From a candidate division WOR-3 bacterium (lineage in GTDB: Bacteria > Hydrothermota > Tepidihabitantia > SM23-42 > JAOAFX01): DNA of 64,000 nucleotides. A program made the position numbers and the translations under genes. The stretch is taken from contig JBBINQ010000008.1 of the NCBI GenBank assembly GCA_037443805.1, positions 3,075 through 67,074 of the forward strand, written 5' to 3'. This document shows, piece by piece, positions 187 to 13,618 of the stretch; within the stretch, counting starts at the first letter, position 1; every line of letters starts with the position of its first letter. Below the pieces are notes generated by a model that did no database searches, was not told where the DNA came from, and saw only the letters and a list, made by a program, of their open reading frames with translations.

Positions 187-813
187 ATGATTAAAAAATA
201 TAGTTATATAAAATTGAAAGATATTGCTGAAAAGATCTTTGCTGGTTTGCCTCCTGCTGAGAAGTGGAATACAAAGGATAATCATCCACGCGTGGTTTAT
301 ATCAATCTAAAAGACCTAAAGAATGGCACTATATCAAGTAATAATCTTGATATCATTCCGCTTGGCAATTCAAATGCTCTCCAGCGGTACCAAATTATTA
401 AGGGGGATATATTAATTGCCTGTCGGGGCACACAACCAAAGGTTGCAATGGTTCAAGACGAACTGAGTGGATTTACTGTCGCTTCACAGAATATTATCAC
501 AATCCGACTTGGTGAGAAACTAAATCCTGTCCTCCTTAAATTTTATCTTGAGAGCCCTGTGGGTAGCAGACAATTACGCTCAAGAGCCTTTTTTTCCAAA
601 ACACAATATATCCTAACGGTTGCTGCTCTTTCAGAAATGGAAATACCAGTGCCACCGCGGGAAATCCAAGATCAACTCGTAGGACTGTTGTCTTTTGTTG
701 ACGAACAACATTCTTTGTCAATTAGAGCTGCGGAACTTCGCAGGCGGATTATGGAGAAACTGGCACTTGATTTAATGATCGGCAAAAAAGAAGACAGGGG
801 GTTTCATGAATAA
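187..813 (+). CDS. hsdS: Type I R-M specificity subunit, half-size (single target-recognition domain plus conserved central region)
   Basis: 208 aa; ends with the conserved ...IPVPPREIQDQLVGLL... spacer typical of HsdS; overlaps hsdM start by 8 nt. Confidence 0.75.
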   Translation: MIKKYSYIKLKDIAEKIFAGLPPAEKWNTKDNHPRVVYINLKDLKNGTISSNNLDIIPLGNSNALQRYQIIKGDILIACRGTQPKVAMVQDELSGFTVASQNIITIRLGEKLNPVLLKFYLESPVGSRQLRSRAFFSKTQYILTVAALSEMEIPVPPREIQDQLVGLLSFVDEQHSLSIRAAELRRRIMEKLALDLMIGKKEDRGFHE

Positions 814-2311
814 ATTAACAAAGGAACAATTTTTTAATCATTTATGGAGCGCTGCAGACATTTTAAGAGGCTCCATTGATGCGGCTGATTATAAGAATTA
901 TATTTTTGGATTTCTTTTTCTTAAGCGGCTGTCTGATGTTTTTGAAGAAGAAGGTGAGAAAATAGAGAAAGAAACTGGAGACAAATATCTTGCCTGGCAG
1001 GAGCCCGACGAACACACTTTTTTTGTTCCTGAAACAGCCCGGTGGTCAGAGTTACGCAAGGTTTCTACGAATATCGGCGACCGTCTCAATAAAGCCTGTT
1101 TTGCATTAGAAGAAGCAAATCCAAAACTTGAAGGTGTATTGGCGGGCATTGACTTCAACGATGAACGGAAACTCGGGGATGCCAAAAATCGTGATTCTGT
1201 GTTGTCTCGGCTTGTCAATCACTTTTCACAAGTAAGTATGCGCAATGCTGATTTGGCAGAACCGGATATCCTTGGTCGTGCATACGAATATTTGATAGAA
1301 CGGTTTGCAGACGATGCAGGTAAAAAGGGTGGAGAATTCTACACGCCAAGGCAGGTAGTTAAATTAATCGTAGAATTACTGGAACCAAAAGAAGGTATGA
1401 GAATTTGCGACCCCTGTTCAGGCAGTGGAGGCATGCTGATTGAATGTGCCCATTATATTGAGCGTCACGGTGGCAATCCAAAAAATATTTCACTTTTTGG
1501 GCAAGAGAAAAACCTTGGCACATGGGCAATATGTAAAATGAACATGCTTCTGCATAATATACCGGATGCACGAATAGAAAAAGGGGATACTATTAGAGAC
1601 CCAAAACTAATTCAGGATGGCGAACTTATGCTATTTGACCGGGTAATAGCTAACCCTCCTTTCAGTCTGAAAGATTGGGGTTATGAAACGGCAATGGCGG
1701 ATGGCTTTGGCCGTTTTCGATTCGGCATCCCGCCAAAAACAAAAGGCGACCTGGCATTTGTCCAGCATATGATCGCGACACTTAATAGTAATGGTATGCT
1801 GGGCGTTGTAATGCCTCACGGGGTTTTATTCCGTGGGTCAAGCGAAGCCAAAATCAGGCAGGGAATACTTGAAGAAGATTTATTTGAAGCAATAATAGGG
1901 CTTGCCCCTAATTTATTCTATGGAACTGGTATTCCCGCTGTAATTCTGGTTATCAATAAGGCAAAACCAAAAGAAAGAAAGGGTAAGGTTTTATTTATCT
2001 ACGGTGCTGAATTATATGAGCAAGGCAAAAATCAGAACAAATTGCGGGATGAGGACATTGCACAGATAGTAAAGGCATTCAAGGATTATTGCGATGCAGA
2101 GCGATTTTCAAGGGTTGTGAGCCTGAATGAAATTAAAGAGAATGATTACAACCTAAACATCAGTCGTTATGTGGATACGACAATACCTGAGGAAAAGATT
2201 GATATTAAAGAGGCATTGATTAAATTACGCCAAATAGAACGGGAACGGGATAAAGCAGAAGAGAAGATGAATGAATATCTTAAAGAACTTGGCTATGATA
2301 TCAAAAAATAA
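806..2311 (+). CDS. hsdM: Type I R-M N6-adenine DNA methyltransferase subunit M
   Basis: 501 aa; HsdM N-terminal domain, SAM-binding region and catalytic NPPF (VIANPPFSLKDW). Confidence 0.92.
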   Translation: MNKLTKEQFFNHLWSAADILRGSIDAADYKNYIFGFLFLKRLSDVFEEEGEKIEKETGDKYLAWQEPDEHTFFVPETARWSELRKVSTNIGDRLNKACFALEEANPKLEGVLAGIDFNDERKLGDAKNRDSVLSRLVNHFSQVSMRNADLAEPDILGRAYEYLIERFADDAGKKGGEFYTPRQVVKLIVELLEPKEGMRICDPCSGSGGMLIECAHYIERHGGNPKNISLFGQEKNLGTWAICKMNMLLHNIPDARIEKGDTIRDPKLIQDGELMLFDRVIANPPFSLKDWGYETAMADGFGRFRFGIPPKTKGDLAFVQHMIATLNSNGMLGVVMPHGVLFRGSSEAKIRQGILEEDLFEAIIGLAPNLFYGTGIPAVILVINKAKPKERKGKVLFIYGAELYEQGKNQNKLRDEDIAQIVKAFKDYCDAERFSRVVSLNEIKENDYNLNISRYVDTTIPEEKIDIKEALIKLRQIERERDKAEEKMNEYLKELGYDIKK

Positions 2312-2370
2312 CTTGACAAAATCATTGTCCTCTTGTCATTGCGAGCCGAAGGCGAAGCAATCTCATCAGT

Positions 2371-3744
2371 ATGACTAAAAAAGAATTGCAGATCATCATT
2401 CAGGAAGGCGAAGGCTACAGAATTGAATTCAAAGAAAGTATTTCAAACATAGACAAAGACCTCGTTGCTTTCGCCAATTCATCAGGTGGCAGGATATTTC
2501 TTGGGGTAACTGATGATAAAAAAATAGCAGGCGTGCAAATTACCAACAAACTCAAAACGCAAATTCAAGACATTGCCAATAATTGCCGACCTGAAATACA
2601 GATTATCATGGAACAATTCTATAATATTCTCATTATTGATGTCCGTGAAGGCTCTGATAAACCTTATGAATGCTCTTCGGGATTTTTCAAAAGGATTGGT
2701 CCTATTTCCAAGAAAATGACGCGAGACGAAATAATTGATTCAATAAAATCGGAAGGTAAGATCAGATTTGATGAACTAACTGCACAAAAATTCAGATACC
2801 CCACTGATTTTGATCGCAATAAACTTAAGAGATTTTTAGAATTAGCCGGACTGTCTAAATCATTAAAGGCAGAACCTGTTCTTGTTAATCTCGGCGTAGC
2901 CGAAAAACAAGAAGGAATACTTTATTTCAATAATGCTGGAGTACTGTTTTTCGCCAAAGAACCGCAAAAGTTCATCCCATGGTCAGTGTTCACAGTGGCT
3001 TTATTTAAGGATGAAGATGGTGTAGATGTGATTGACCGAAAAGAGATTGGCGGTTCTCTCTTTGAAATCGTTGACCAAGTCATGGATTTTGTAAAACTCT
3101 ATTCCAAAGTCGCTTATCGGTTTACTGGAAGACCGCAGCGCGAAAACATTTATGAATACCCTTTTGAGGCGATACGAGAAGCAGTAATAAATTCAGTTAT
3201 GCATAAATACTATTTTGAACATGGTCATAACAATATTTTACGCTTTCTGCCCAATAAAATACGAATTGAAAACTATTGGCAAAAACCACATAAATTTAGG
3301 CTTGGTAAAACAGTATTTAGAAGAAATCCATTGGTGGTTGATCTATTCGCACGAATTCACTTCGGCGAAAAGATGGGCACGGGTTTGGATAGGATGAAGA
3401 ATATTTGCAAGAAGGAAAATGCACCCTATCCAAAAATCGAATTTAACGAGAATTATTTTTATGTCACTTTTACGCCGAGCAAGGAATACCTTAAAATGGC
3501 AACGAAAAAAGAAACTAAAAGAAAATTTGATTTAAACAAACTCAATGAACGACAGCGAAAAGCGGTAGACTACGTGCGAAGGTATGGGCACATAGGGAAT
3601 AAAGAATATAGAAAAATTACAGGATTAGGAAAAGTCTATGCGGCAAAAGAACTAAATGAGTTAGTTAAGAAAAGAGTTCTTGTGAAAATCGGGAAGGGAA
3701 GCGCGACGCACTATGTACTCAGTGAACGATTAGTGAACGATTAG
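2371..3744 (+). CDS. AlbA_2 (Schlafen-like) DNA-binding domain / HATPase_c_4 / wHTH protein (RecG-like putative regulator) embedded in the R-M operon
   Basis: N-terminal ...RIEFKES...VAFANSSGGRIFLGV... matches the AlbA_2 fold; this architecture is commonly inserted between hsdM and hsdS. Confidence 0.7.
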   Translation: MTKKELQIIIQEGEGYRIEFKESISNIDKDLVAFANSSGGRIFLGVTDDKKIAGVQITNKLKTQIQDIANNCRPEIQIIMEQFYNILIIDVREGSDKPYECSSGFFKRIGPISKKMTRDEIIDSIKSEGKIRFDELTAQKFRYPTDFDRNKLKRFLELAGLSKSLKAEPVLVNLGVAEKQEGILYFNNAGVLFFAKEPQKFIPWSVFTVALFKDEDGVDVIDRKEIGGSLFEIVDQVMDFVKLYSKVAYRFTGRPQRENIYEYPFEAIREAVINSVMHKYYFEHGHNNILRFLPNKIRIENYWQKPHKFRLGKTVFRRNPLVVDLFARIHFGEKMGTGLDRMKNICKKENAPYPKIEFNENYFYVTFTPSKEYLKMATKKETKRKFDLNKLNERQRKAVDYVRRYGHIGNKEYRKITGLGKVYAAKELNELVKKRVLVKIGKGSATHYVLSERLVND

Positions 3745-3756
3745 TGAGCGATTACT

Positions 3757-5082
3757 ATGCAAGGTATAAAGAATCTCTCCGCCAGCACAAAATTTAAAAA
3801 AACACCCATCGGCGAAATTCCGGTTGACTGGAGCGTGGTTAAACTGGGTGATGTGATTTCTTTATTTCAAAACGGCATTTGGGGTGAAAAGCCATCCGCG
3901 AATGATATGTCTTTTCCAGTGATAAGATCAACAGAAATAACGTATGATTGTAAGATCAATGTCGCAACGGTAGAATACAGAAAAGTTCCTGAAGATAAAG
4001 TAGACAAATATAAATTAAAGGATGGTGATATACTTATAGTATCTTCAAGCGGTTCACCGCACTTAATCGGCAGAGTAGCACAATTCAAACACAATGCTAC
4101 TGATAAGCAAACATATTTATTCTCCAATTTTATGATAAGAATAAGACCTCAAGGTATAAATTCAACATTTTTGTTCTACTACTTAAATTCCTATTCGTAT
4201 TTTTGTTTCTTGAAAAATCTTCAGCAGACATCAACTGGATTAAGGAACTTACCGAGAACAGAGCTAATCAATTTTTATGTTCCCTTACCACCGCTATCTG
4301 AACAAGAAAAAATTGCTGCGGTTCTTACCTCTGTTGACGATACCATAGAAAAAACCCAGCAATTGATTGAACAGACAAAAAAACTGCAGAAGGCATTAAC
4401 CCAAGAACTACTAACCAAAGGCATTCCGGGTTTACACAAAAAATATAAGAAAACGATCTTTGGTGATATACCTGTAGACTGGGAGATTGTAAGATTAGGT
4501 GATGTCTTAATAGTAGTCAAAAATGGCCTTTCTTATAAACAATCACAAAATGCAGGTCGTTATTCAATAACAAGAATAGAAACGATTTCAGAAGGTGTAA
4601 TCAACGCAGATAAGGTTGGATATTTGGATCATTTGACCGATGAAGAAATCAGAAACAATAAATTAACGGCTGGTGATATTTTGTTTAGTAATATTAATAG
4701 TCTTGAACATATTGCCAAGACAGCCATTTATTTATCTTCACATCCGATGTTAATACACGGGATGAATTTATTGCTACTTAGGCCAAATAGAAGCAAAATA
4801 GAGCCATTCTTTCTGCTATTTTATCTTAAATTCAATGAGACGATCAATAGATTTAGACGGTTATCTAAAAAAGCTATTAACCAAGTATCAATTAATCAGA
4901 CTGAAATTAAGAATTTTCTTATTCCACTTCCAAGTCTTAACGAACAGAAATCCATTGTTAATTCTTTGCTCGCAATAGAACATAATCTTGTAGGCTTACT
5001 TAATCAGAAATTACAGATTGAAACCCTAAAACAAAGTCTCATGCAAGTTCTATTGACTGGCAAAGTAAGGTTAAAAAAATAA
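3757..5082 (+). CDS. hsdS: Type I R-M specificity subunit, full length (two TRDs)
   Basis: 441 aa; two conserved spacer motifs (FYVPLPPLSEQEKI...; FLIPLPSLNEQKSI...). Confidence 0.88.
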   Translation: MQGIKNLSASTKFKKTPIGEIPVDWSVVKLGDVISLFQNGIWGEKPSANDMSFPVIRSTEITYDCKINVATVEYRKVPEDKVDKYKLKDGDILIVSSSGSPHLIGRVAQFKHNATDKQTYLFSNFMIRIRPQGINSTFLFYYLNSYSYFCFLKNLQQTSTGLRNLPRTELINFYVPLPPLSEQEKIAAVLTSVDDTIEKTQQLIEQTKKLQKALTQELLTKGIPGLHKKYKKTIFGDIPVDWEIVRLGDVLIVVKNGLSYKQSQNAGRYSITRIETISEGVINADKVGYLDHLTDEEIRNNKLTAGDILFSNINSLEHIAKTAIYLSSHPMLIHGMNLLLLRPNRSKIEPFFLLFYLKFNETINRFRRLSKKAINQVSINQTEIKNFLIPLPSLNEQKSIVNSLLAIEHNLVGLLNQKLQIETLKQSLMQVLLTGKVRLKK

Positions 5083-5113
5083 TGCTTTTTTCTCAAGGTG
5101 GGTGGATAAAAAT

Positions 5114-5140
5114 TTCCTCCCCATTGATGGGGGAGGATTA
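5114..5140. repeat. Palindromic element TTCCTCCCC-ATTGAT-GGGGGAGGATTA (copy 1), followed by two degenerate half-copies at 5163-5183 and 5204-5224
   Basis: Near-identical copy at 46861-46887; stem CCTCCCC/GGGGAGG. Confidence 0.7.
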
Positions 5141-5245
5141 TTAAGGAGGAAATTATATACATACCAATTATCCCTCCCATCAAGGGCGGGAACAAAGAAA
5201 GAAAATATCCTCTCATCAAGGGATGGGAAGTTCAGGGTCATTACT

Positions 5246-8200
5246 ATGCCTTCTGATTGGGATGAGTTGCATTTAGTGGAAGAGCCGGCGATTGAAGTCC
5301 TGAAGGGGCTGGGATATACATTTGTTTCTCCGGAGGAATTGGATAAGGAACGGGAAGGCACCAAGAATGTAATTTTAGTCCCGCGGTTGGAAAAGGCGTT
5401 ACGGAAAATCAATCCCTGGATTTCAGACGAGAATATTAAAAGGGCAGTGCGTGCAATTGGACAGGTGCAGGCAACAAGTCTGATGGAAGCCAATGAACAG
5501 ATTCATACTGCATTAGTCCATACTATTTCTTTGGAGCAAGATATTGGTCAGGGAAAGAAAGGACAGCCAGTTCATTTTATTGATTTTGAAAATATTAAGA
5601 ATAACGAGTTTGTCATAACAAGGCAATTTAAGGTTACCGGACAAAAGGTGAGTATCCAAGCTGATATTGTGGTTTTTGTAAATGGCATTCCATTGGTTGT
5701 TATTGAATGCAAAAGTCCAACAATTAGAAACCCGATTGAAGAAGGAATTATTCAATTATTGCGTTATCAGGAAGCAGAGGAAAAATTTAAAGGTCTTGGC
5801 GCGCCAAAATTGTTTGAATCTTGTCAGATTGTTGCCGTTATTTGTCGGGAATCGGCTCGGTATGGAACATTATGGACGCAACCGAGATTTTGGAGCGAGT
5901 GGAAAACTACATATCCACTATCACTTGATGAAGTTAAGAGTCGCATTGGCAGATTGCCGTTGGCACAAGATGTATTTTTATATGGTATGCTTGCACGTGA
6001 TAATCTATTGGATTTAATCCGATATTTTATTGTTTTTGATATAGAAAAAGGCAAAACCATAAAGAAACTGGCTCGTTATCCGCAGTTTTTGGCAGTGAAC
6101 AATGCGATTGAACGTATTAAAAAGACTCGGATACCAAAGAAAAGGGGCGGTGTGGTGTGGCATACTCAGGGCGCAGGAAAGTCTTTGACCATGCTCTGGT
6201 TAGCAACAAAATTACGGAGAATGCCTGAATTTGAGAATCCAACGCTTGTAATTGTCACAGACCGAAAAGATTTGGATCGGCAGATCAACAAGACCTTCAA
6301 AAATTGTGGGTTTGCCAATCCGTTAAGGGCTAAATCGGGTGAAGATTTAAAAAATCTACTTACTATTGGCGTTGGGCAGACAGTTCTAACGACAATACAA
6401 AAATTTACCGATGCTGCACAGGTAGCAGCACTCATTGAGGCGACAAATATATTCGTGATGACCGACGAAGCGCACAGAACCGAATACGGTATTCTTGCCG
6501 CAAAGATGCGTCGTGCCTTGCCGAATGCATGTTTTCTTGCTTTTACCGGCACACCAATTGACAAGCGAGAGCGTAGTACACTCAGGACATTCGGCGATTA
6601 TATTCACACTTACACAATTGAACAGGCAGTCCAGGATGGGGCAACTGTTCCCATTTACTATGAGAGTAGATTGCCCGAAGTTCAGATTGTCGGTAATACT
6701 ATTGATACGCTTTTTGAACGCTGGTTCAGGGACTATACATCTGAACAGAGGGAAGAGATAAAACGGCGTTATGCCACCGAAGAGGTAATTGGCCAGTCAG
6801 CAAAAAGGATTGAAAGAATCTGTCTGGACATTGTAGAACATTATGAAAAATTCATTATGCCTAATGGATTTAAAGCACAGGTTGTCGCACCGAGTCGGGA
6901 AGCTGCAATTACTTATTATGAAACACTCAATCGCCTTAATGCACCATCAAGCGAGGTTCTAATTTCACCAGCACACAATGACCCGGAGCGTCTGGTCAGC
7001 CATTATAAAACTGAAGCCGAAGAGAAAGAGGTAATTAGAAGATTCATTGAAGAACCAGTTGAGGATTTAGCGATTATTGTTGTCTGCGACAAATTGCTTA
7101 CTGGTTTTGACGCACCGATTGAACAGGTGATGTATCTTGATAAACCATTGAGAGAACATACTCTTTTGCAGGCAATTGCCCGGGTAAATCGCACATATGA
7201 AGGTAAGGACTACGGTTTGATTGTTGACTACTGGGGCGTATCCCGTGAATTGCAAGAGGCATTGAATGTATTTAGACCCGAAGATATTATTGGTATTCAA
7301 AGATATTTTGAAGATGAACTACCCAGATTAGAAACAAGGCATCGTGCGGTAATGCGCTTTTTTGATAATGTCAATAAAGCGGACATTAACGAGTGCATCG
7401 CGGTCCTTGAACCTGAGGATGTCAGAGCTGATTTTGACACTGCATTTCGTCGTTTTTCAAAAAGTATGGATATGATGCTCCCTGACCCAAGGGCATTACG
7501 ATTTATCGCTGATTTAAAATGGCTTGGCCAGGTTCGTAATGCGGCACGCTTGAGATATCGGGATGATACACTTGATTTAGCCGGTTGCGGAGCAAAAGTC
7601 AGGCAACTCATTGAAGAACATCTGACTGTGACCGGCATTACAAAATTGATTGAGCCGGTATCTATCTTCTCCAGCAAATTTGAAGAAGAGTTGGCTAAAC
7701 TCAGCTCACCTGAGGCAAAGGCAAGTGAGATGGAGCATGCGATACGACACGAAATTAATATTCGGTTAGATGAAAATCCCGTATATTACCAATCATTAAA
7801 AGAAAGGCTTGAGCAGATTATTGAACAGCGTAAACAGGAAAGAATAGATGCCATAAAACAACTGGAATTATTAGAAAAATTAGCAGAAGAAATGAAAAAT
7901 CTGCATAAAATTGCAGAGTCAATCGGCATGACCGAGGCGGAGTTCGCTTTTTACAAATTGCTCTCATCAGGGCACGATGACAAAACTAAAAGTGTCAAAG
8001 ACATTCAAGTTTCTGATGTTGAGCCTACTTATGAGGCTATAAACGAATCTCACAAGGAACTTGCGGGATTAATAATAGAGTCGCTTGAAAAACTGATTGT
8101 CATTGATTGGATTCACAAAGAAGATGTTCAGCGCGAGATGCGCAGACAAATTAAGAGACATCTGCGGGCAGCAGGGTATGGACCCGAAGAAATTGAACAT

Positions 8201-8248
8201 CTGACTTTAAAAATGATGGACCTGGCACGGATTAGATTTGCCCAATGA
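5246..8248 (+). CDS. hsdR: Type I R-M restriction subunit R (SF2 helicase/endonuclease)
   Basis: N-terminus MPSDWDELHLVEEPAIEVLKGLGYTF... resembles HsdR N-termini; DEAH-like TDEAHR; helicase motifs. The track ORF from 5102 reads through the palindromic element and is probably an over-extension. Confidence 0.9.
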   Translation: MPSDWDELHLVEEPAIEVLKGLGYTFVSPEELDKEREGTKNVILVPRLEKALRKINPWISDENIKRAVRAIGQVQATSLMEANEQIHTALVHTISLEQDIGQGKKGQPVHFIDFENIKNNEFVITRQFKVTGQKVSIQADIVVFVNGIPLVVIECKSPTIRNPIEEGIIQLLRYQEAEEKFKGLGAPKLFESCQIVAVICRESARYGTLWTQPRFWSEWKTTYPLSLDEVKSRIGRLPLAQDVFLYGMLARDNLLDLIRYFIVFDIEKGKTIKKLARYPQFLAVNNAIERIKKTRIPKKRGGVVWHTQGAGKSLTMLWLATKLRRMPEFENPTLVIVTDRKDLDRQINKTFKNCGFANPLRAKSGEDLKNLLTIGVGQTVLTTIQKFTDAAQVAALIEATNIFVMTDEAHRTEYGILAAKMRRALPNACFLAFTGTPIDKRERSTLRTFGDYIHTYTIEQAVQDGATVPIYYESRLPEVQIVGNTIDTLFERWFRDYTSEQREEIKRRYATEEVIGQSAKRIERICLDIVEHYEKFIMPNGFKAQVVAPSREAAITYYETLNRLNAPSSEVLISPAHNDPERLVSHYKTEAEEKEVIRRFIEEPVEDLAIIVVCDKLLTGFDAPIEQVMYLDKPLREHTLLQAIARVNRTYEGKDYGLIVDYWGVSRELQEALNVFRPEDIIGIQRYFEDELPRLETRHRAVMRFFDNVNKADINECIAVLEPEDVRADFDTAFRRFSKSMDMMLPDPRALRFIADLKWLGQVRNAARLRYRDDTLDLAGCGAKVRQLIEEHLTVTGITKLIEPVSIFSSKFEEELAKLSSPEAKASEMEHAIRHEINIRLDENPVYYQSLKERLEQIIEQRKQERIDAIKQLELLEKLAEEMKNLHKIAESIGMTEAEFAFYKLLSSGHDDKTKSVKDIQVSDVEPTYEAINESHKELAGLIIESLEKLIVIDWIHKEDVQREMRRQIKRHLRAAGYGPEEIEHLTLKMMDLARIRFAQ

Positions 8249-8979
8249 AAATCCATAAAATTAGTTTCGGCAGAAAAATAATAAGGTTTGTAATTAAACG
8301 GACAAAACGCAAAAAAACAATGTCGATTTCAGTCGGGCTTGATGAGGAAGTAAAAGTAAAAATACCTTACAGGCTTGTGGCAAAAAAAGTGTATCCAATA
8401 ATAAAAAAGAAAGCACCATGGATTTTGAAACATTTAAATGATATAAAGGAAATGCATTATCCAGTTATAAAGCATGAATTTGTCAGTGGTGAGTCTTTTT
8501 CTTACTTGGGCAGACATTTCCGTCTAAGGGTGAAAAAACTAAAAGGTACAATAAAGCCTAATGTTGTGACGAATGCTGGGTATCTTGAAACTACGGTTAG
8601 TAGTGCTTTAAGTAAGCGGAAACAAACTGAAACCGTGCGTTTGGCACTCATTGAATGGTACAAAAAACATGCAATTGCGAAACTGGGCGAAAGGGTATCC
8701 ATTTATGCCCGAAAAATGGGACTTACAAAACCAATAGTTTTAGTGCGAGACCAGAAGAAGCGTTGGGCAAGTTGTTCAAAAACTGGTGTTTTACGATTTA
8801 ATTGGCGAATTATAATGGCGCCGATATCAATCATTGATTATATTGTCGTCCATGAACTCAGCCATCTCAAAATCAAAAGCCACTCGGCAGAGTTTTGGAA
8901 GCAAGTGTCTTCAATTATACCAGATTATGAGCGCAGAAGATTATGGCTCAGGAACAATGCGGGGATATTTAGATGGTAA
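8245..8979 (+). CDS. DUF45/YgjP-like (SprT/WLM-type) HExxH zinc metallopeptidase
   Basis: 244 aa; HELSHLKIKSHSAEFW motif; start overlaps hsdR stop (ATGA), a common hsdR-linked accessory gene. Confidence 0.75.
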   Translation: MKIHKISFGRKIIRFVIKRTKRKKTMSISVGLDEEVKVKIPYRLVAKKVYPIIKKKAPWILKHLNDIKEMHYPVIKHEFVSGESFSYLGRHFRLRVKKLKGTIKPNVVTNAGYLETTVSSALSKRKQTETVRLALIEWYKKHAIAKLGERVSIYARKMGLTKPIVLVRDQKKRWASCSKTGVLRFNWRIIMAPISIIDYIVVHELSHLKIKSHSAEFWKQVSSIIPDYERRRLWLRNNAGIFRW

Positions 8980-9638
8980 AAAATGTAAGTAACAGAAATA
9001 TGAAAAAAATATTATTAATTACTGAACAGCCAGAACAATACCCACCGAGTGTCGTTCAACCACATCTGAGAGCAATCGCCCAATGCACGCCTATCAACGC
9101 ATGTTGGGGAAATGTTGTCCACAATCCTATCGGACTTGCCCTGAACTCTAATCCATTTGGCACTAGCACTTTGACATTGCAACGTCTTGATAGAATATTC
9201 AATTGGCTTCTTACCCGCGGGCACACATATTACTGGACACACTGGATCAAATGCCCGCGACAAGGATACCCCAAAAATATATATTTTAATGACGCATGCG
9301 CTAATAATTGGCTCCATCAAGAAATAAGTCAATTTATTCCGGATGTTATCTTCACATTTGGTGAACATGCCACATCATTTGTTTTAAAAAGACTCGCTGG
9401 TTTTAATATTCATAATCATGAATTTACAGATATTCTATGGGAATTCGTTAGATCATGTTTCAAAAATCGAAATAGAAGAGCAATTATGCTGAGAAATGTC
9501 AAACCGTCGATTCAAGTGCATCTTATTCCACTTCCTCATCCAAGTGGTGCTAATAATCTAAGTAGATTGTTTTTTAATAAATCTAACAAATTACGAGTAG
9601 AAATCCGAAATTATCTATTAACCAGAAGAATACTATAA
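8973..9638 (+). CDS. Uracil-DNA-glycosylase-superfamily-like protein with degenerate motif A
   Basis: ...THWIKCPRQG..., ...IFTFGEHATSFV..., ...PLPHPSGAN resemble UDG family-4 motifs (NIVKCRPP, LGxxA, HPSP), but GE(A/G)PG is replaced by ACWGN. Confidence 0.4.
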   Translation: MVKNVSNRNMKKILLITEQPEQYPPSVVQPHLRAIAQCTPINACWGNVVHNPIGLALNSNPFGTSTLTLQRLDRIFNWLLTRGHTYYWTHWIKCPRQGYPKNIYFNDACANNWLHQEISQFIPDVIFTFGEHATSFVLKRLAGFNIHNHEFTDILWEFVRSCFKNRNRRAIMLRNVKPSIQVHLIPLPHPSGANNLSRLFFNKSNKLRVEIRNYLLTRRIL

Positions 9639-9957: not shown

Positions 9958-10518
9958 TTAGTAATTATTTTGTTCTAAGGGAACATAAACAAGTTTATCC
10001 GACTTGCGGAATCCCCTTTTCAATAAGATATCTCTTTCCTTCAGCAGGCAACTGCGGTTGTGCTTGATGGCGTCATCAAAATTACCTGTTAGCCAGGCAT
10101 TCATACAAGCCATACTATTATCATAAAATGGATCATCGTAATTTAAAATTTGCAGATCAATTACAACATCCTTTTTTCGTTCATACATAGCACTATTCAA
10201 TTCTCCTTCAAATTCAATTTTTTGGTTAAGAAAATAGAATAATACGCTTCTTTCAAAATTAGTGTTAAAAGCATAGTATGGCCTTTTCAATTTAGGCAAT
10301 AAGATTAAAATTTCCTTTTTTAATTCAGGGACTGAATCGTTATCCACTGCGCATAATATTTTTATTCGGCGATTATTTATTGTGCCAAAAATAAAGGGAA
10401 TAATGTTTATACAACGGCGCGAATCACGATACTGATTAAAAAAATAACCATAAGTTTCAAGGTCAATTATTGTGCCCTTGAAATCCGATGTTATTTCTTC
10501 GGTATATACTTTAACCAT
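9958..10518 (-). CDS. Small protein with DnaQ/Orn-like (DEDD-type) 3'-5' exonuclease motif I (IIDLETYG); candidate partner/effector of the upstream cyclase-STAND gene
   Basis: 186 aa. Motif I DLET near the N-terminus. Possible motif II FNTNFERSVL and motif III NFDDAI with substitutions. ATG overlaps the stop of the 1035-aa gene (ATGGTTAA). Confidence 0.45.
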   Translation of the reverse strand: MVKVYTEEITSDFKGTIIDLETYGYFFNQYRDSRRCINIIPFIFGTINNRRIKILCAVDNDSVPELKKEILILLPKLKRPYYAFNTNFERSVLFYFLNQKIEFEGELNSAMYERKKDVVIDLQILNYDDPFYDNSMACMNAWLTGNFDDAIKHNRSCLLKERDILLKRGFRKSDKLVYVPLEQNNY

Positions 10519-13500
10519 TGGTGTATTTTTTATACAGGGAGAGAAAACTCAGAGGGGATGTTTTCTTTTTTAAGGTCTTTTTATCTGGTATTATTGATAT
10601 CAGGTTCTGTTTTTTCAAAAATTTATATGCCTCTTCTTTTTTGCCTCGCGCGAGCAAGTAGATAAAATATTCATTACAAAATAAATTTTCTTTTCCCTTT
10701 ATAATTTTTTCAACATCTTCTAATTTACCATAGTATAACAGAAGTTTAAGATAACCAGCAGCATACAATTTTGTTGCGTTTGCCACCTCATCATGCAGTC
10801 TGGCAAAATATTGTGCGTTAGCCTTCTGATTTAGTAGTATATGAAGTTCAGTCAGCGCCAATAAAACAATGGATTCCCAGTAAGGAAAACTGATTGTCTG
10901 AAAATTTTTGAGGCTCTTTTTGAGGTAATTTTGGGCGATTTCAAAATTTCCTTTTAACATTTCAATCTGTCCAAGCCTTAAGAGTGCTGTCCCTTCATCA
11001 AATAAATCACCTTCTTTAACGAATTTGAGTGACTGGTGAAAATATTTTTCAGCCTTTAAATATTCCATTTTTTTAAAATAAATCCAGCCAATATTGTAGT
11101 AACTTCCTATTAAAGCCCCAAGATGATTCTTCTGCCGGGCAAGGACTAAAGATTTCCGATACTGTAACAGTGCCTCGTGGTTTTTCCCAATCATATCATA
11201 ATAGATGCCCCATAGTTCAGTTTTTAATAATTTTTCTTTAATATTTAATGGATATTTGTCCAGTGCCCTGAGAACTCTTTCCATCTTTGGATACTGATTA
11301 CTCCAGTCATATAATCCGGCAAGTGCAAATAACACTTCTTTTTTAATCGATTTAATCTTCTTGAGCTTCAATAGAATCTCCTCTGCATCGTAATAGTCTG
11401 ATACTTTTATCAAATACAGGGCATTAATAAAAGAACTTGTGTTTTTTGTCGGCGTATCATCATAACTACCCAAATTTTGTATTATTTTTGCAATTTCACT
11501 CTGAAATCCCTGGCTGTAAAGTTCATCAAATGTGTCAGCCCAGTATGGTAGTGCCCTATAAGAATTTCCTGCTTCAGTGAAATGCCTGGCGATTTCATAA
11601 GGACTCCTGCCTTCTTGCACAAAAATTTCGCCAATCTGTTTTTCATATTTTTTTCTGTGCGTATCAAGTAGTGAATCCAGTATTGCTTCACGAAATAAGG
11701 CATGCCTGAACTGGAATATGCGGTCATTCTTTAGAATTATGCCTTTATCAATGGTTGATTTAAAGTCTATATTTTTATTACTGAAGAATTTTTTAATGGT
11801 CTGGTCAGAGAATTCCATACCAATACAGGAACCGATTTCAAGGAGTTTTTTTGCACTGGAGGATAGATTATTGAACTTTGATAATAGAATGGAGTGTATA
11901 CTAAAAGGTAATGTGTGTGCATCATCACAGATAGAAAACTTTTTTCCTTTATTAATAATAAATTTTTTTTCCTGCAAATCTTTTATTATTTGTTCAAAAT
12001 AGAAAGGATTTCCCTGAGTACGTTCCTGCAGAAAATTGTAGAATTTTTTATCTGGTGGTGCACCCAGTGTTTCTTCAGCGAGATTCTTTAAATGCTCCGA
12101 AGATAAATTTGCACAACCTATTTTTTCTATTTTAAGCTTATCCGCAAATCTTTCACCTTCCTGCCTTGATGAGGCAATAATGATAAATGGTAGCGGCATC
12201 AAATCTTTTAATAACATAAATGATACATCATCTATCCATTGCAGGTCTTCAACAAAGATTATCAAGTTGGACTTTGTTTTGAATAACTTTTTTAATAATT
12301 CCAGCACTTTAATTTGAGGCAATTGTAGTGAACCATTAAGGTAATTCTTAAGTTCAGGAAATTCGCCTTCAGGAAAGTGTTTAAAAATCTCTTTTAATAA
12401 AAAGAGTGGTGAAGAAACAGGTAAGAGTGCTACTTCAATAACATTTTTCTGTTTTATCTTTTTCCTCAACTCATAGAGCAACCGTGATTTTCCAGTTCCC
12501 CCATCACCAATAAAGCATATACTTTTATTGTTTCTTATAAGACTTAAACCGGTCTTGAATTCTTTTGCCCTGCCCACAAATTTAAAACTGAACCGTGCAG
12601 GATTCAATACACCGGCAACTCTCTCCTGTGGAATATAAATTCCAATCTTTTCTTCTTTACCTTTTAATTTTGTAGCACCTACATATGTAAAATTAAATCT
12701 ATGTTTCAATACTTGTTGAATCTCTGCTGAGAGATATATACTATTTTCAGGTGCAAGTGCACATAATCGGGCAGCAATATTGACCGAATCGCCAAGTACT
12801 GCAAATTCTGTAAATTTTTTTGTTTTAATTTCTCCCGCAAATACAATCCCTGAACTGATTCCCATTTTAAATTTATGACCCTTGAATTCAGTTTTTAATC
12901 TATTGAAGATATCAATGCACATCTCTGCTTCTTTTCCTGAAGACTCAGGAAAACCGGCAATGAGCAGTGCCTGGAAACCATCAATGGTGGGAATCCATTT
13001 TAGTAACTTTATTTTGTCTTTCTGTTCACAGAAGAAAGAGCTTAGCAAATAGACCAGAGCAATATTTTGCGGGACTTTAAAAAACACAATATAAAGGGGT
13101 CTATGCGCAGGAGGATAATCCAGTTTCTGTGAGATACTCGGAAAGTCTGGAAGAGCAGTGCCTTTCTGCAGTGAGGCAGAAAGAATATCTATCTTTCCTG
13201 CAGGGGTCTTTTCTTCTAATAAATTCAGGTCATAGAGCACCTGACCATTAATAAGCAAGTCCTGATAATTATCCGATACCTGTAGCCAATCACCTTCAAT
13301 CAGTCCTGATACTGCAACAAATCGGGTCTTAAGGTTATTTTTCTTTAAGATTCTTAGATTTAGAAGTTCTTTACCCAGTATCTTTAATCTTTCTTTTTCA
13401 ATATTTCCTGGAAATATTGCATAAAAAGCATCACCAGCGAGTTTAAAAATCCTTCCCTGACAATTTAGAATTTTATTTTCTGCTTCTTTAAAAAAATTTG

Positions 13501-13618
13501 TAATTATTGCACTTAACTGCTCAGTACCTTTTTTTCCTTTTTTTGCCAGTTGTTCACTCAGTGTAGTAAAACCACCAATATCCTGGATTCCTATCCAGTA
13601 GTTACCTTTAAATTTCAT
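10511..13618 (-). CDS. Multidomain signalling ATPase: tandem class-III nucleotidyl cyclase homology domains + STAND (AAA_16) NTPase + TPR repeats
   Basis: CHD1 has IQDIGGFT/KLAGDAFYAIF. CHD2 has GISSGIVFAGEI...VLGDSVNIAARL. Walker A GDGGTGKS, Walker B IIFVEDLQWIDD. The C-terminal ~450 aa is TPR-like. Confidence 0.85.
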   Translation of the reverse strand: MKFKGNYWIGIQDIGGFTTLSEQLAKKGKKGTEQLSAIITNFFKEAENKILNCQGRIFKLAGDAFYAIFPGNIEKERLKILGKELLNLRILKKNNLKTRFVAVSGLIEGDWLQVSDNYQDLLINGQVLYDLNLLEEKTPAGKIDILSASLQKGTALPDFPSISQKLDYPPAHRPLYIVFFKVPQNIALVYLLSSFFCEQKDKIKLLKWIPTIDGFQALLIAGFPESSGKEAEMCIDIFNRLKTEFKGHKFKMGISSGIVFAGEIKTKKFTEFAVLGDSVNIAARLCALAPENSIYLSAEIQQVLKHRFNFTYVGATKLKGKEEKIGIYIPQERVAGVLNPARFSFKFVGRAKEFKTGLSLIRNNKSICFIGDGGTGKSRLLYELRKKIKQKNVIEVALLPVSSPLFLLKEIFKHFPEGEFPELKNYLNGSLQLPQIKVLELLKKLFKTKSNLIIFVEDLQWIDDVSFMLLKDLMPLPFIIIASSRQEGERFADKLKIEKIGCANLSSEHLKNLAEETLGAPPDKKFYNFLQERTQGNPFYFEQIIKDLQEKKFIINKGKKFSICDDAHTLPFSIHSILLSKFNNLSSSAKKLLEIGSCIGMEFSDQTIKKFFSNKNIDFKSTIDKGIILKNDRIFQFRHALFREAILDSLLDTHRKKYEKQIGEIFVQEGRSPYEIARHFTEAGNSYRALPYWADTFDELYSQGFQSEIAKIIQNLGSYDDTPTKNTSSFINALYLIKVSDYYDAEEILLKLKKIKSIKKEVLFALAGLYDWSNQYPKMERVLRALDKYPLNIKEKLLKTELWGIYYDMIGKNHEALLQYRKSLVLARQKNHLGALIGSYYNIGWIYFKKMEYLKAEKYFHQSLKFVKEGDLFDEGTALLRLGQIEMLKGNFEIAQNYLKKSLKNFQTISFPYWESIVLLALTELHILLNQKANAQYFARLHDEVANATKLYAAGYLKLLLYYGKLEDVEKIIKGKENLFCNEYFIYLLARGKKEEAYKFLKKQNLISIIPDKKTLKKKTSPLSFLSLYKKYTNG

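Follow-up and report, generated by a model that had tools for sequence, protein, structure and literature searches.

Organization of the Operon and Its Last Gene

The stretch of DNA analyzed here (64,000 nucleotides of contig JBBINQ010000008.1 from a candidate division WOR-3 bacterium, in the following referred to as the window) harbors a type I restriction-modification (R-M) operon whose last gene encodes a protein of the uracil-DNA glycosylase (UDG) superfamily. This UDG-like protein of 221 aa (8973..9638, plus strand; Pfam UDG PF03167, E 3.4e-9) belongs to a small group of relatives termed the 'TEQP / YWTH / HPS' clade, and its gene is directly preceded by one for a YgjP-like/DUF45 zinc metallopeptidase of 244 aa (8245..8979, plus strand; Pfam PF01863, E 8e-56). 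The region from 187 to 9638 represents a single co-directional gene run, in which neighboring genes overlap or are at most 60 nt apart, and the UDG-like gene is the last cistron of an operon arranged as hsdS'-hsdM-Schlafen-hsdS-hsdR-DUF45-UDG-like. Sequence motifs, fold comparisons and genomic neighborhoods point to a probable glycosylase for a base other than uracil, for which an accessory role in the R-M system is tentatively proposed.

The type I R-M system is complete, with HsdM, HsdS and HsdR encoded on one strand (the plus strand) and gaps of at most 60 nt. The operon's first gene visible in the window encodes a half-size HsdS with one target-recognition domain (187..813; Pfam Methylase_S, E 4e-12); it precedes hsdM and is additional to the full-length hsdS gene. 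HsdM, a type I N6-adenine methyltransferase, is encoded at 806..2311 (Pfam N6_Mtase, E 7e-107; HsdM_N, E 1e-34), and the full-length HsdS, featuring two target-recognition domains, at 3757..5082 (Pfam Methylase_S, E 1e-37, in two stretches). Between hsdM and hsdS, a gene for a Schlafen AlbA_2 and HATPase_c_4 protein was found (2371..3744; Pfam SLFN_AlbA_2, E 9e-19; HATPase_c_4, E 3e-9), which is also matched by the PADLOC model named pAgo (PDLC02394; E 7e-17). The type I restriction subunit HsdR (5102..8248) comprises the Pfam domains HSDR_N, SWI2_SNF2, T1R_D3-like and T1RH-like_C.

An earlier note on this DNA, compiled from the sequence alone, had described the DUF45 gene as overlapping the stop codon of hsdR, and this arrangement was verified: the DUF45 start codon and the TGA of hsdR overlap as ATGA. 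Likewise, the start codon of the UDG-like gene overlaps the DUF45 stop codon as ATGGTAA, and the UDG-like gene is translationally coupled to DUF45. The same order was observed in contig L002 from a public sequencing run, where the orthologue P0002 (77% identical to the UDG-like protein) follows a 94%-identical DUF45 protein and the end of an hsdR gene (97% identity for this end), and where the stop/start overlap between the last two genes is kept as ATGGTGA. The internal ATG at position 9000 serves as the start of P0001, a database copy of the UDG-like protein with 212 aa. Since L002 has AAG at this site and keeps the upstream overlapping ATG, the ATG at 8973 is regarded as the conserved start, and the annotated start of P0001 is probably nine codons too short, judging from this comparison.

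Between the window and L002, dN/dS values of 0.37 (dS 0.35) and 0.20 (dS 0.15) were determined for the UDG-like gene and for DUF45, respectively; the UDG-like gene is under purifying selection yet diverges faster than DUF45. Alignment of window positions 8245-9638 to positions 142-1532 of L002 also revealed far greater divergence in the UDG-like gene than in the genes beside it, which suggests that the last cistron has a different history from its neighbors or is under weaker constraint. Scans for promoters and terminators around the DUF45 and UDG-like genes performed no better than shuffled controls.

Assignment to the UDG Superfamily

The UDG-like protein matched PF03167 with 37.4 bits (cut-off 24.3) over profile positions 34-138 of 141. 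Furthermore, a profile built from 28 relatives matched the family-4 UDG structures 1ui0 and 4zbx at approximately 1e-8 and, more weakly, UdgX entries. An AF2 model was built on the alignment of 28 relatives (pLDDT 73, pTM 0.74; low confidence at residues 23-36 and 45-63) and compared with the PDB using Foldseek. UDG-superfamily structures accounted for 49 of the 50 matches listed, the exception being a weak match at rank 49. The best match was 4zby of family 4 (E 3.9e-4, TM 0.47-0.52), followed by UdgX and subsequently by SMUG and TDG; the moderate TM values are ascribed to the two low-confidence loops of the model. Scores of the protein remained below the cut-offs of the curated family-4 models in NCBIfam, namely TIGR00758 (17.4 bits vs. 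125.3) and NF040953 (15.5 vs. 250).

Based on these results, the protein is placed within the UDG superfamily, in a small clade without a name whose nearest kin are the iron-sulfur family-4 and UdgX enzymes. The earlier note had suggested a UDG fold with altered specificity. Its proposal of the fold was corroborated by the profile and Foldseek comparisons, and an altered active site is also indicated by the motifs described below; the reason it gave, a degenerate catalytic motif, did not hold.

Motifs and Predicted Base Pocket

Motif blocks were defined from the family alignment and a census of approximately 90 sequences. The first block is a cysteine pair of the form C-x5-C-(W/Y)-G or C-x2-C; the others are strand beta1 with [ILV]-[TS]-E-Q-(P) at its end, Y-W-T-H-x-x-K-(C/H) as an invariant block, a likewise invariant Cys ahead of W-L-x-x-E-I, then F-G, and H-P-(S). 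Among the approximately 90 relatives, T/S-E-Q, Y-W-T-H, K-C and H-P show little or no variation. Hidden Markov model (HMM) alignments to the family-4 UDGs of Thermus and Thermotoga (1ui0, 1vk2) were colinear in block order, pairing C..C with C-x2-C, viTEQp with VGEGPG, the next Cys with Cys, and HPS with HP(A/S). The pairings of KCPRQG with KCRPP, of FGEHA with LGxxA and of HPSGAN with HPS, which had previously been made by eye, were reproduced by HMM alignments.

Motif 1 was located at LLITEQPE (residues 14-21; 9012..9035, plus strand), which is the counterpart of GE(A/G)PG and of GEQP according to the family alignment and the colinear alignment to 1ui0 and 1vk2. Where family 4 features G-E-(A/G)-P-G, the window protein reads T-E-Q-P-E, having lost both Gly and retained Glu and Pro. 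The earlier note had instead taken ACWGN as the replacement of the catalytic GE(A/G)PG. These residues represent the tail of C38-x5-C44-W-G, and their assignment to motif 1 was rejected, since in most relatives the C-x5-C-W-G module is found ahead of motif 1. On the basis of the alignments, motif 1 is not degenerate: TEQP keeps Glu and Pro and resembles the GEQP of UdgX.

The actual departure from a uracil-specific active site was found in motif 3, YYWTHWIKCPRQG (residues 86-98; 9228..9266, plus strand), in which His90 replaces the uracil-reading Asn, Lys93 and Cys94 being conserved as in family 4. YWTH..KC aligns gap-free to YITN..KC of 1ui0, FITN of 4zbx and YICN of 1l9g, and in the HMM alignment YWTHfiKC pairs gap-free with YITNIVKC. 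In place of the Asn of family 4, His90 is invariant across the approximately 90 relatives, and the Lys three residues past it, corresponding to K83/K94 of the reference enzymes, is kept. In Thermus UDGa, N80 makes a pair of hydrogen bonds with N3 and O4 of uracil (PMC5387724); the position of this residue was identified by counting along the printed 1ui0 alignment. Its counterpart in UdgX, N91, is essential, and the N91A exchange abolishes activity (PMC10776899). Moreover, the clade has no conserved equivalent of the motif-1 Phe that provides stacking in the reference enzymes (F54 of Thermus UDGa, F65 of UdgX), given that the stretch following TEQP is variable.

Further downstream, DACANNWLHQEI (9291..9326, plus strand) contains two invariant residues, Glu117 and Cys109; the latter pairs with the fourth Fe-S cysteine in the alignment to family 4. 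Motif 2, PLPHPSGAN (9528..9554, plus strand), carries the H-P that is invariant in the family and aligns to HPS/HPA of family 4. It reads H189-P190-S191 and thus retains the family-4 H-P, with His189 corresponding to H155 of Thermus UDGa, the main catalytic residue stabilizing the leaving group (PMC5387724).

The family-4 UDGa enzymes (Thermus thermophilus 1ui0, Sulfolobus tokodaii 4zby, Thermotoga maritima 1l9g) provided the best profile and fold matches and share the block order of Cys pair, beta1/motif 1, x-x-T-x-x-x-K-C, helix Cys, FG and H-P as well as the motif-1 Glu/Pro, the motif-3 Lys/Cys and the motif-2 His. They differ from the clade in having GE(A/G)PG instead of TEQP, Asn80 instead of His and a conserved Phe54, and from the window protein also in the position of the Cys pair, which follows motif 1 in the latter. 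As the Glu-x-Pro of TEQP, the motif-3 Lys, the motif-2 His and four cysteines are retained, the protein is most likely an active monofunctional DNA glycosylase. With Asn replaced by His in an invariant YWTH and the stacking Phe not conserved, its base pocket is, according to the alignment, not a uracil pocket, and the flipped-out target would be another, probably modified, base. Overall, an active glycosylase with an altered pocket is considered probable with good confidence.

The cysteine module C38-x5-C44-W-G (9084..9113, plus strand) is located N-terminal to motif 1 in most relatives, at the site where family 4 has C-x2-C, and probably supplies two Fe-S ligands. In the alignment, C94 and C109 match the central pair of family-4 cysteines, while the C38/C44 pair follows motif 1. 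All four residues could hold a [4Fe-4S] cluster. The placement of the Cys pair after motif 1 was observed in a monophyletic minority of the clade including the window protein, and the module there keeps the same signature, I-x-x-C-x5-C-W-G-...-N-P. It looks like a metal-ligand segment that was relocated within one fold.

The DUF45 Protein and Its Linkage to HsdR

The DUF45 protein represents a full-length member of its family, covering profile positions 1-206 of 207 of PF01863, and its HExxH zinc site reads HELSH (residues 203-207; window 8851-8865). The catalytic portion at its C-terminus is similar to the minigluzincin proabylysin (4jiu, E 8e-5). A single-sequence AF2 model was unusable (pLDDT 34). 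No match was obtained in PADLOC, and in PHROGs just the function-unknown family phrog_35874 was matched (E 3.2e-5).

In order to evaluate the linkage to hsdR, the DUF45 protein was searched against 72,556 plasmids, of which 559 records matched, and eight annotated contexts, spaced evenly along the match ranking, were read. Directly 3' of hsdR, with codons overlapping or nearly abutting, a DUF45 homologue was found in five of these eight contexts (Synechocystis pSYSX, a Klebsiella IncFIB plasmid, Haloquadratum PL100, an Acetobacter plasmid and a Providencia plasmid). The three weakest of the sampled matches (Cetobacterium, Methylocella, Priestia) are unlinked paralogues. The linkage of hsdR and DUF45 is real and spans bacteria and archaea, in agreement with the description of DUF45 as an hsdR companion in the earlier note. 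Literature on DUF45, COG1451 and YgjP in connection with hsdR yielded nothing explaining it.

Members elsewhere share the full-length PF01863 domain, HExxH and the position directly after hsdR with the window protein, and differ in that only the window and L002 have a UDG-like gene next to them. The gene following hsdR-DUF45 in other taxa was checked for a hidden UDG and is not UDG-like. In Klebsiella plasmid NZ_AP022184.1 (6977-10222), the slot is occupied by a gene for a hypothetical protein and then one for a DUF262-domain protein, and in the Providencia plasmid (3917-5900) by a gene for a 399-aa hypothetical protein overlapping the DUF45 stop codon, which suggests that the position after hsdR-DUF45 is a recurrent insertion slot for accessory genes. 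Conversely, DUF45 is present in only one of 66 other loci carrying UDG-like relatives, namely that of the close relative in L002. Since DUF45 follows hsdR elsewhere without a UDG and is nearly absent from other UDG-like loci, it is assigned to HsdR, and the UDG-like gene is regarded as an added last cistron. DUF45 is a partner of HsdR in its own right and is widely conserved; as a zinc peptidase of the minigluzincin type, it probably acts on the restriction complex and not together with the glycosylase.

These data also bear on the idea that the UDG-like protein is a non-excising or DNA-crosslinking UDG-fold protein that binds a specific base in DNA or, like UdgX, traps it covalently, with the adjacent DUF45 protease possibly clearing the adduct or a stalled HsdR. 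UdgX of Mycobacterium smegmatis (6ail, 6ioa) is among the top fold matches and shares the E-Q-P of motif 1 with the window protein, the leading Gly of its G-E-Q-P being replaced by Thr. Moreover, hsdR-linked DUF45 proteins are annotated by NCBI as 'SprT family zinc-dependent metalloprotease', and a weak match to WLM was recorded (E 0.015). However, the extended R-loop in motif 3 of UdgX, which carries the crosslinking His109 (PMC10776899), has no counterpart in the window protein: C94 and C109 are spaced by 14 residues (PRQGYPKNIYFNDA) as in ordinary family 4, a stretch that is not extended compared with Thermus UDGa and that lacks His. In addition, Asn91 of UdgX is replaced by His in the clade, and D56, D59 and R107 are not evident in the window protein. 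DUF45 and hsdR also occur together in many taxa without a UDG-like gene, and no clade member besides those of the window and L002 has a DUF45 neighbor. UdgX-type crosslinking with DUF45 as the resolving protease was thus judged unlikely, and a non-excising or crosslinking protein in general very improbable.

Distribution and Genomic Neighborhoods of the Clade

The TEQP/YWTH/HPS clade is rare, comprising approximately 100 sequences. A word-seeded search retrieved three matches among 5.8 billion clusters, and an exhaustive phmmer search 38 among 1.84 billion representatives (28 with the profile). In their source databases, these proteins are named 'hypothetical protein' or, automatically, 'uracil-DNA glycosylase'. 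Carriers among species representatives are metagenome-assembled genomes of Bathyarchaeota, Thermoplasmata, Woesearchaeota, Heimdallarchaeota, Thermoproteales, Cloacimonadota (two) and Desantisbacteria, and 57 metagenome loci carry a clade member. No relative was detected in the viral contigs of IMG/VR, and a viral origin of the gene was rejected for this reason.

R-M genes were found at 8 of the 30 clade loci having at least 3 kb of flanking sequence, and in a neighbor-joining tree these loci are spread over at least five separate branches. If R-M genes are roughly assumed to account for a few tenths of a percent of all genes, which is not a measured control, this proportion is several-fold above expectation. 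In L061 (18-3779), the UDG-like gene is located 13 nt 3' of a gene for a 1034-aa HsdR that is 31% identical to that of the window, without DUF45 in between. The encoded clade member is distant, its motif 2 reading HTS instead of HPS, and L061 represents a second, independent junction of hsdR to a UDG-like gene. In L025, hsdM and hsdS lie 3-5 kb upstream of the UDG-like gene; L054, L056 and L057 feature a gene for a 1039-aa Eco57I-like methyltransferase as divergent neighbor; and L052, L066 and L031 carry genes for N6_N4 methyltransferases, in L066 immediately downstream. Genes for integrases, Fic, PIN, GIY-YIG, AAA_14-DUF4143, AbiEii and BrxL proteins were also observed near some clade loci. 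A partner gene common to the whole clade was not found among the loci examined.

The varied methyltransferases adjoining clade members (type I HsdM, Eco57I-like, N6_N4) would fit a self-repair function following the logic of Vsr with Dcm, in which the glycosylase mends damage at or because of methylated bases and protects the host genome. Such a function appears very improbable, as the neighboring methyltransferases belong to the N6-adenine or N4-cytosine classes and differ in specificity. Deamination products of bases methylated in these ways are already handled by ordinary enzymes. Moreover, no methyltransferase is encoded nearby for most clade members, and the direct partner in both L061 and the window is a restriction subunit rather than a methylase.

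A strong rival is a housekeeping or accessory repair glycosylase for a spontaneous lesion in anaerobic archaea and bacteria, the lesion being uracil after all or a different base altered by deamination or oxidation, for example hypoxanthine, xanthine or 5-hydroxymethyluracil, and the place in the R-M operon being incidental cargo. This explanation has to be taken seriously, although it is considered rather unlikely. It agrees with the nearest relatives by sequence and fold, family 4 and UdgX, being repair enzymes, with the retention of the catalytic Glu, Lys and His and of the cysteines, with the uniformity of the pocket motifs across the clade, and with the stable syntenic housekeeping contexts of several members, also including L003 and L008. 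On the other hand, the clade is far too rare and patchy to provide the main UDG of any lineage, the uracil-reading Asn is replaced in every member, and the protein fell short of the curated family-4 models (17 bits vs. 125). Furthermore, the coupling to hsdR-DUF45 is conserved, adjacency to hsdR arose again independently in L061, and R-M neighbors occur on several branches of the clade.

Apart from R-M genes, two side observations were made in these neighborhoods. In the Thermoproteales locus L010, a 28%-identical homologue of the Schlafen protein is encoded approximately 6 kb from the UDG-like gene. The only recurrent neighbor of UDG-like genes encodes a protein of approximately 280 aa, usually in convergent orientation (L025 5694-6371, L032 539-1387, L041 1396-2319, L054 8955-9788, L056 1767-2600, L057 8956-9921; also L038). 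Its core, (P)D-C ... E-F-E ... H ... C-D-L-I-V-C-W, resembles PD-(D/E)xK nucleases by eye; two copies showed a weak N-terminal match to the EVE domain (E 0.004 and 0.009), and no PDB match was obtained.

Genes Adjoining the Operon in the Window

On the 3' side, the operon is followed by two convergent minus-strand genes, and ordinary metabolic genes begin at approximately 13.7 kb. The first of the two is an open reading frame of 186 aa (9958-10518, minus strand), in which the motifs IIDLET and AFNTNFE resemble those of DEDD exonucleases by eye only; no match was obtained in Pfam, NCBIfam, PHROGs, PADLOC or the PDB. Its start overlaps the stop codon of a gene for a 1035-aa Guanylate_cyc, AAA_16 and TPR protein (10511-13618, minus strand), for which weak matches to PycC (Pycsar cyclase) were recorded. 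Both genes may represent a two-gene defence module of cyclase plus effector that is convergent with the R-M operon. Neither tRNA genes nor Rfam matches were detected within the window.

Proposed Role of the UDG-Like Protein

UDG-fold glycosylases were recognized as antiviral only recently, with Brig1 in 2024 and Brig2 and Brig3 in 2025-26, and genes residing inside type I R-M systems frequently function in defence. In this context, it is tentatively proposed that the UDG-like protein is a non-uracil active glycosylase recruited as an accessory, probably defensive, arm of the R-M system. As such an arm of the type I locus, it would excise a base of invading DNA that escapes type I restriction or is not seen by it, and the resulting abasic sites would block replication or be cut by host AP (apurinic/apyrimidinic) endonucleases, as is the case for Brig1-3. 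An accessory, probably defensive role is favored by the position in the operon, the conservation of this position, the second linkage to hsdR and the patchy distribution of the clade.

The earlier note had placed the gene among Brig1-like defence candidates. Of this suggestion, the R-M neighborhood proved to be recurrent; a relation to Brig1 was not supported, PADLOC gave no match, and the argument for defence remains one of genomic context, other members residing among housekeeping genes. Brig1, Brig2 and Brig3 are antiviral DNA glycosylases of the UDG fold and, like the clade members, small single-domain proteins with defence or R-M neighborhoods, and the proposed logic, excision of a modified base from phage DNA, is the same. 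The Brig1 family is characterized by the removal of alpha-glucosyl-5hmC and by protection from T-even phages. The best structural match of Brig1 is also 4ZBY, but Brig1 lacks the cysteine motifs of the clade and its motif 1 is of the GLNPG type. Membership in the Brig1 family was rejected, as the alignment of the clade profile to the Brig1 sequence by hhalign reached a probability of only 0.4% (E 0.16). Of the Brig3 active site (N50-P51-S52, E55, D127), no obvious counterpart was apparent in the window protein by eye, and DUF45 does not resemble BapA, the ASCH-like deglucosylase with which Brig3 pairs. Furthermore, Brigs were found in Actinobacteria and Proteobacteria, whereas the clade resides in uncultivated archaea and candidate phyla. 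The clade is at most Brig-like in its mode of action and does not belong to Brig1, the sole Brig family compared by sequence.

Several points weigh against the explanation proposed here. In addition to the hhalign result for Brig1, neither PADLOC nor PHROGs provided a match for the protein. The pocket motifs are near-invariant across the clade, which suggests one conserved substrate and fits lesion repair at least as well as an effector in an arms race. Most neighbors of clade members are unrelated housekeeping genes, and some members hold stable, syntenic places among such genes: P0047 adjoins genes for ribonucleotide reductase and a NUDIX protein in three samples, and P0062 and P0063, from two related contigs, lie within a conserved gene block close to dnaX. 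The enrichment of R-M genes was calculated from an assumed background rate, and the Fe-S assignment was made by homology only, the C38/C44 region being modeled at a pLDDT below 50.

An extension of the defensive reading would regard the clade as a fourth, iron-sulfur class of Brig-type antivirals that spread horizontally among uncultivated archaea and candidate-phylum bacteria and became attached repeatedly to type I, IIG and II R-M systems, with the His-for-Asn pocket reading a viral modification new as a glycosylase target. For the operon of the window, this would mean that the type I enzyme gains a second arm aimed at modified DNA. This is considered doubtful.

Implications for the UDG Superfamily and Its Hosts

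Results obtained for the window define a clade that is distinct in sequence, probably retains the iron-sulfur architecture of family 4, carries one clade-wide substitution at the specificity residue and is linked to genes for restriction subunits in two lineages that are independent of each other. The pocket model predicts that an H90N exchange restores uracil recognition. In either case, the motif assignment behind the original suggestion is corrected. If the protein is a repair enzyme, the clade would form a UDG family of its own, new and marked by an unusual residue at the specificity position. If it is a defence enzyme, immunity by glycosylases, for which the known Brig examples all originate from screens in Proteobacteria-compatible settings, would extend to archaea and candidate phyla, and base modification in viruses of those hosts would be indicated.

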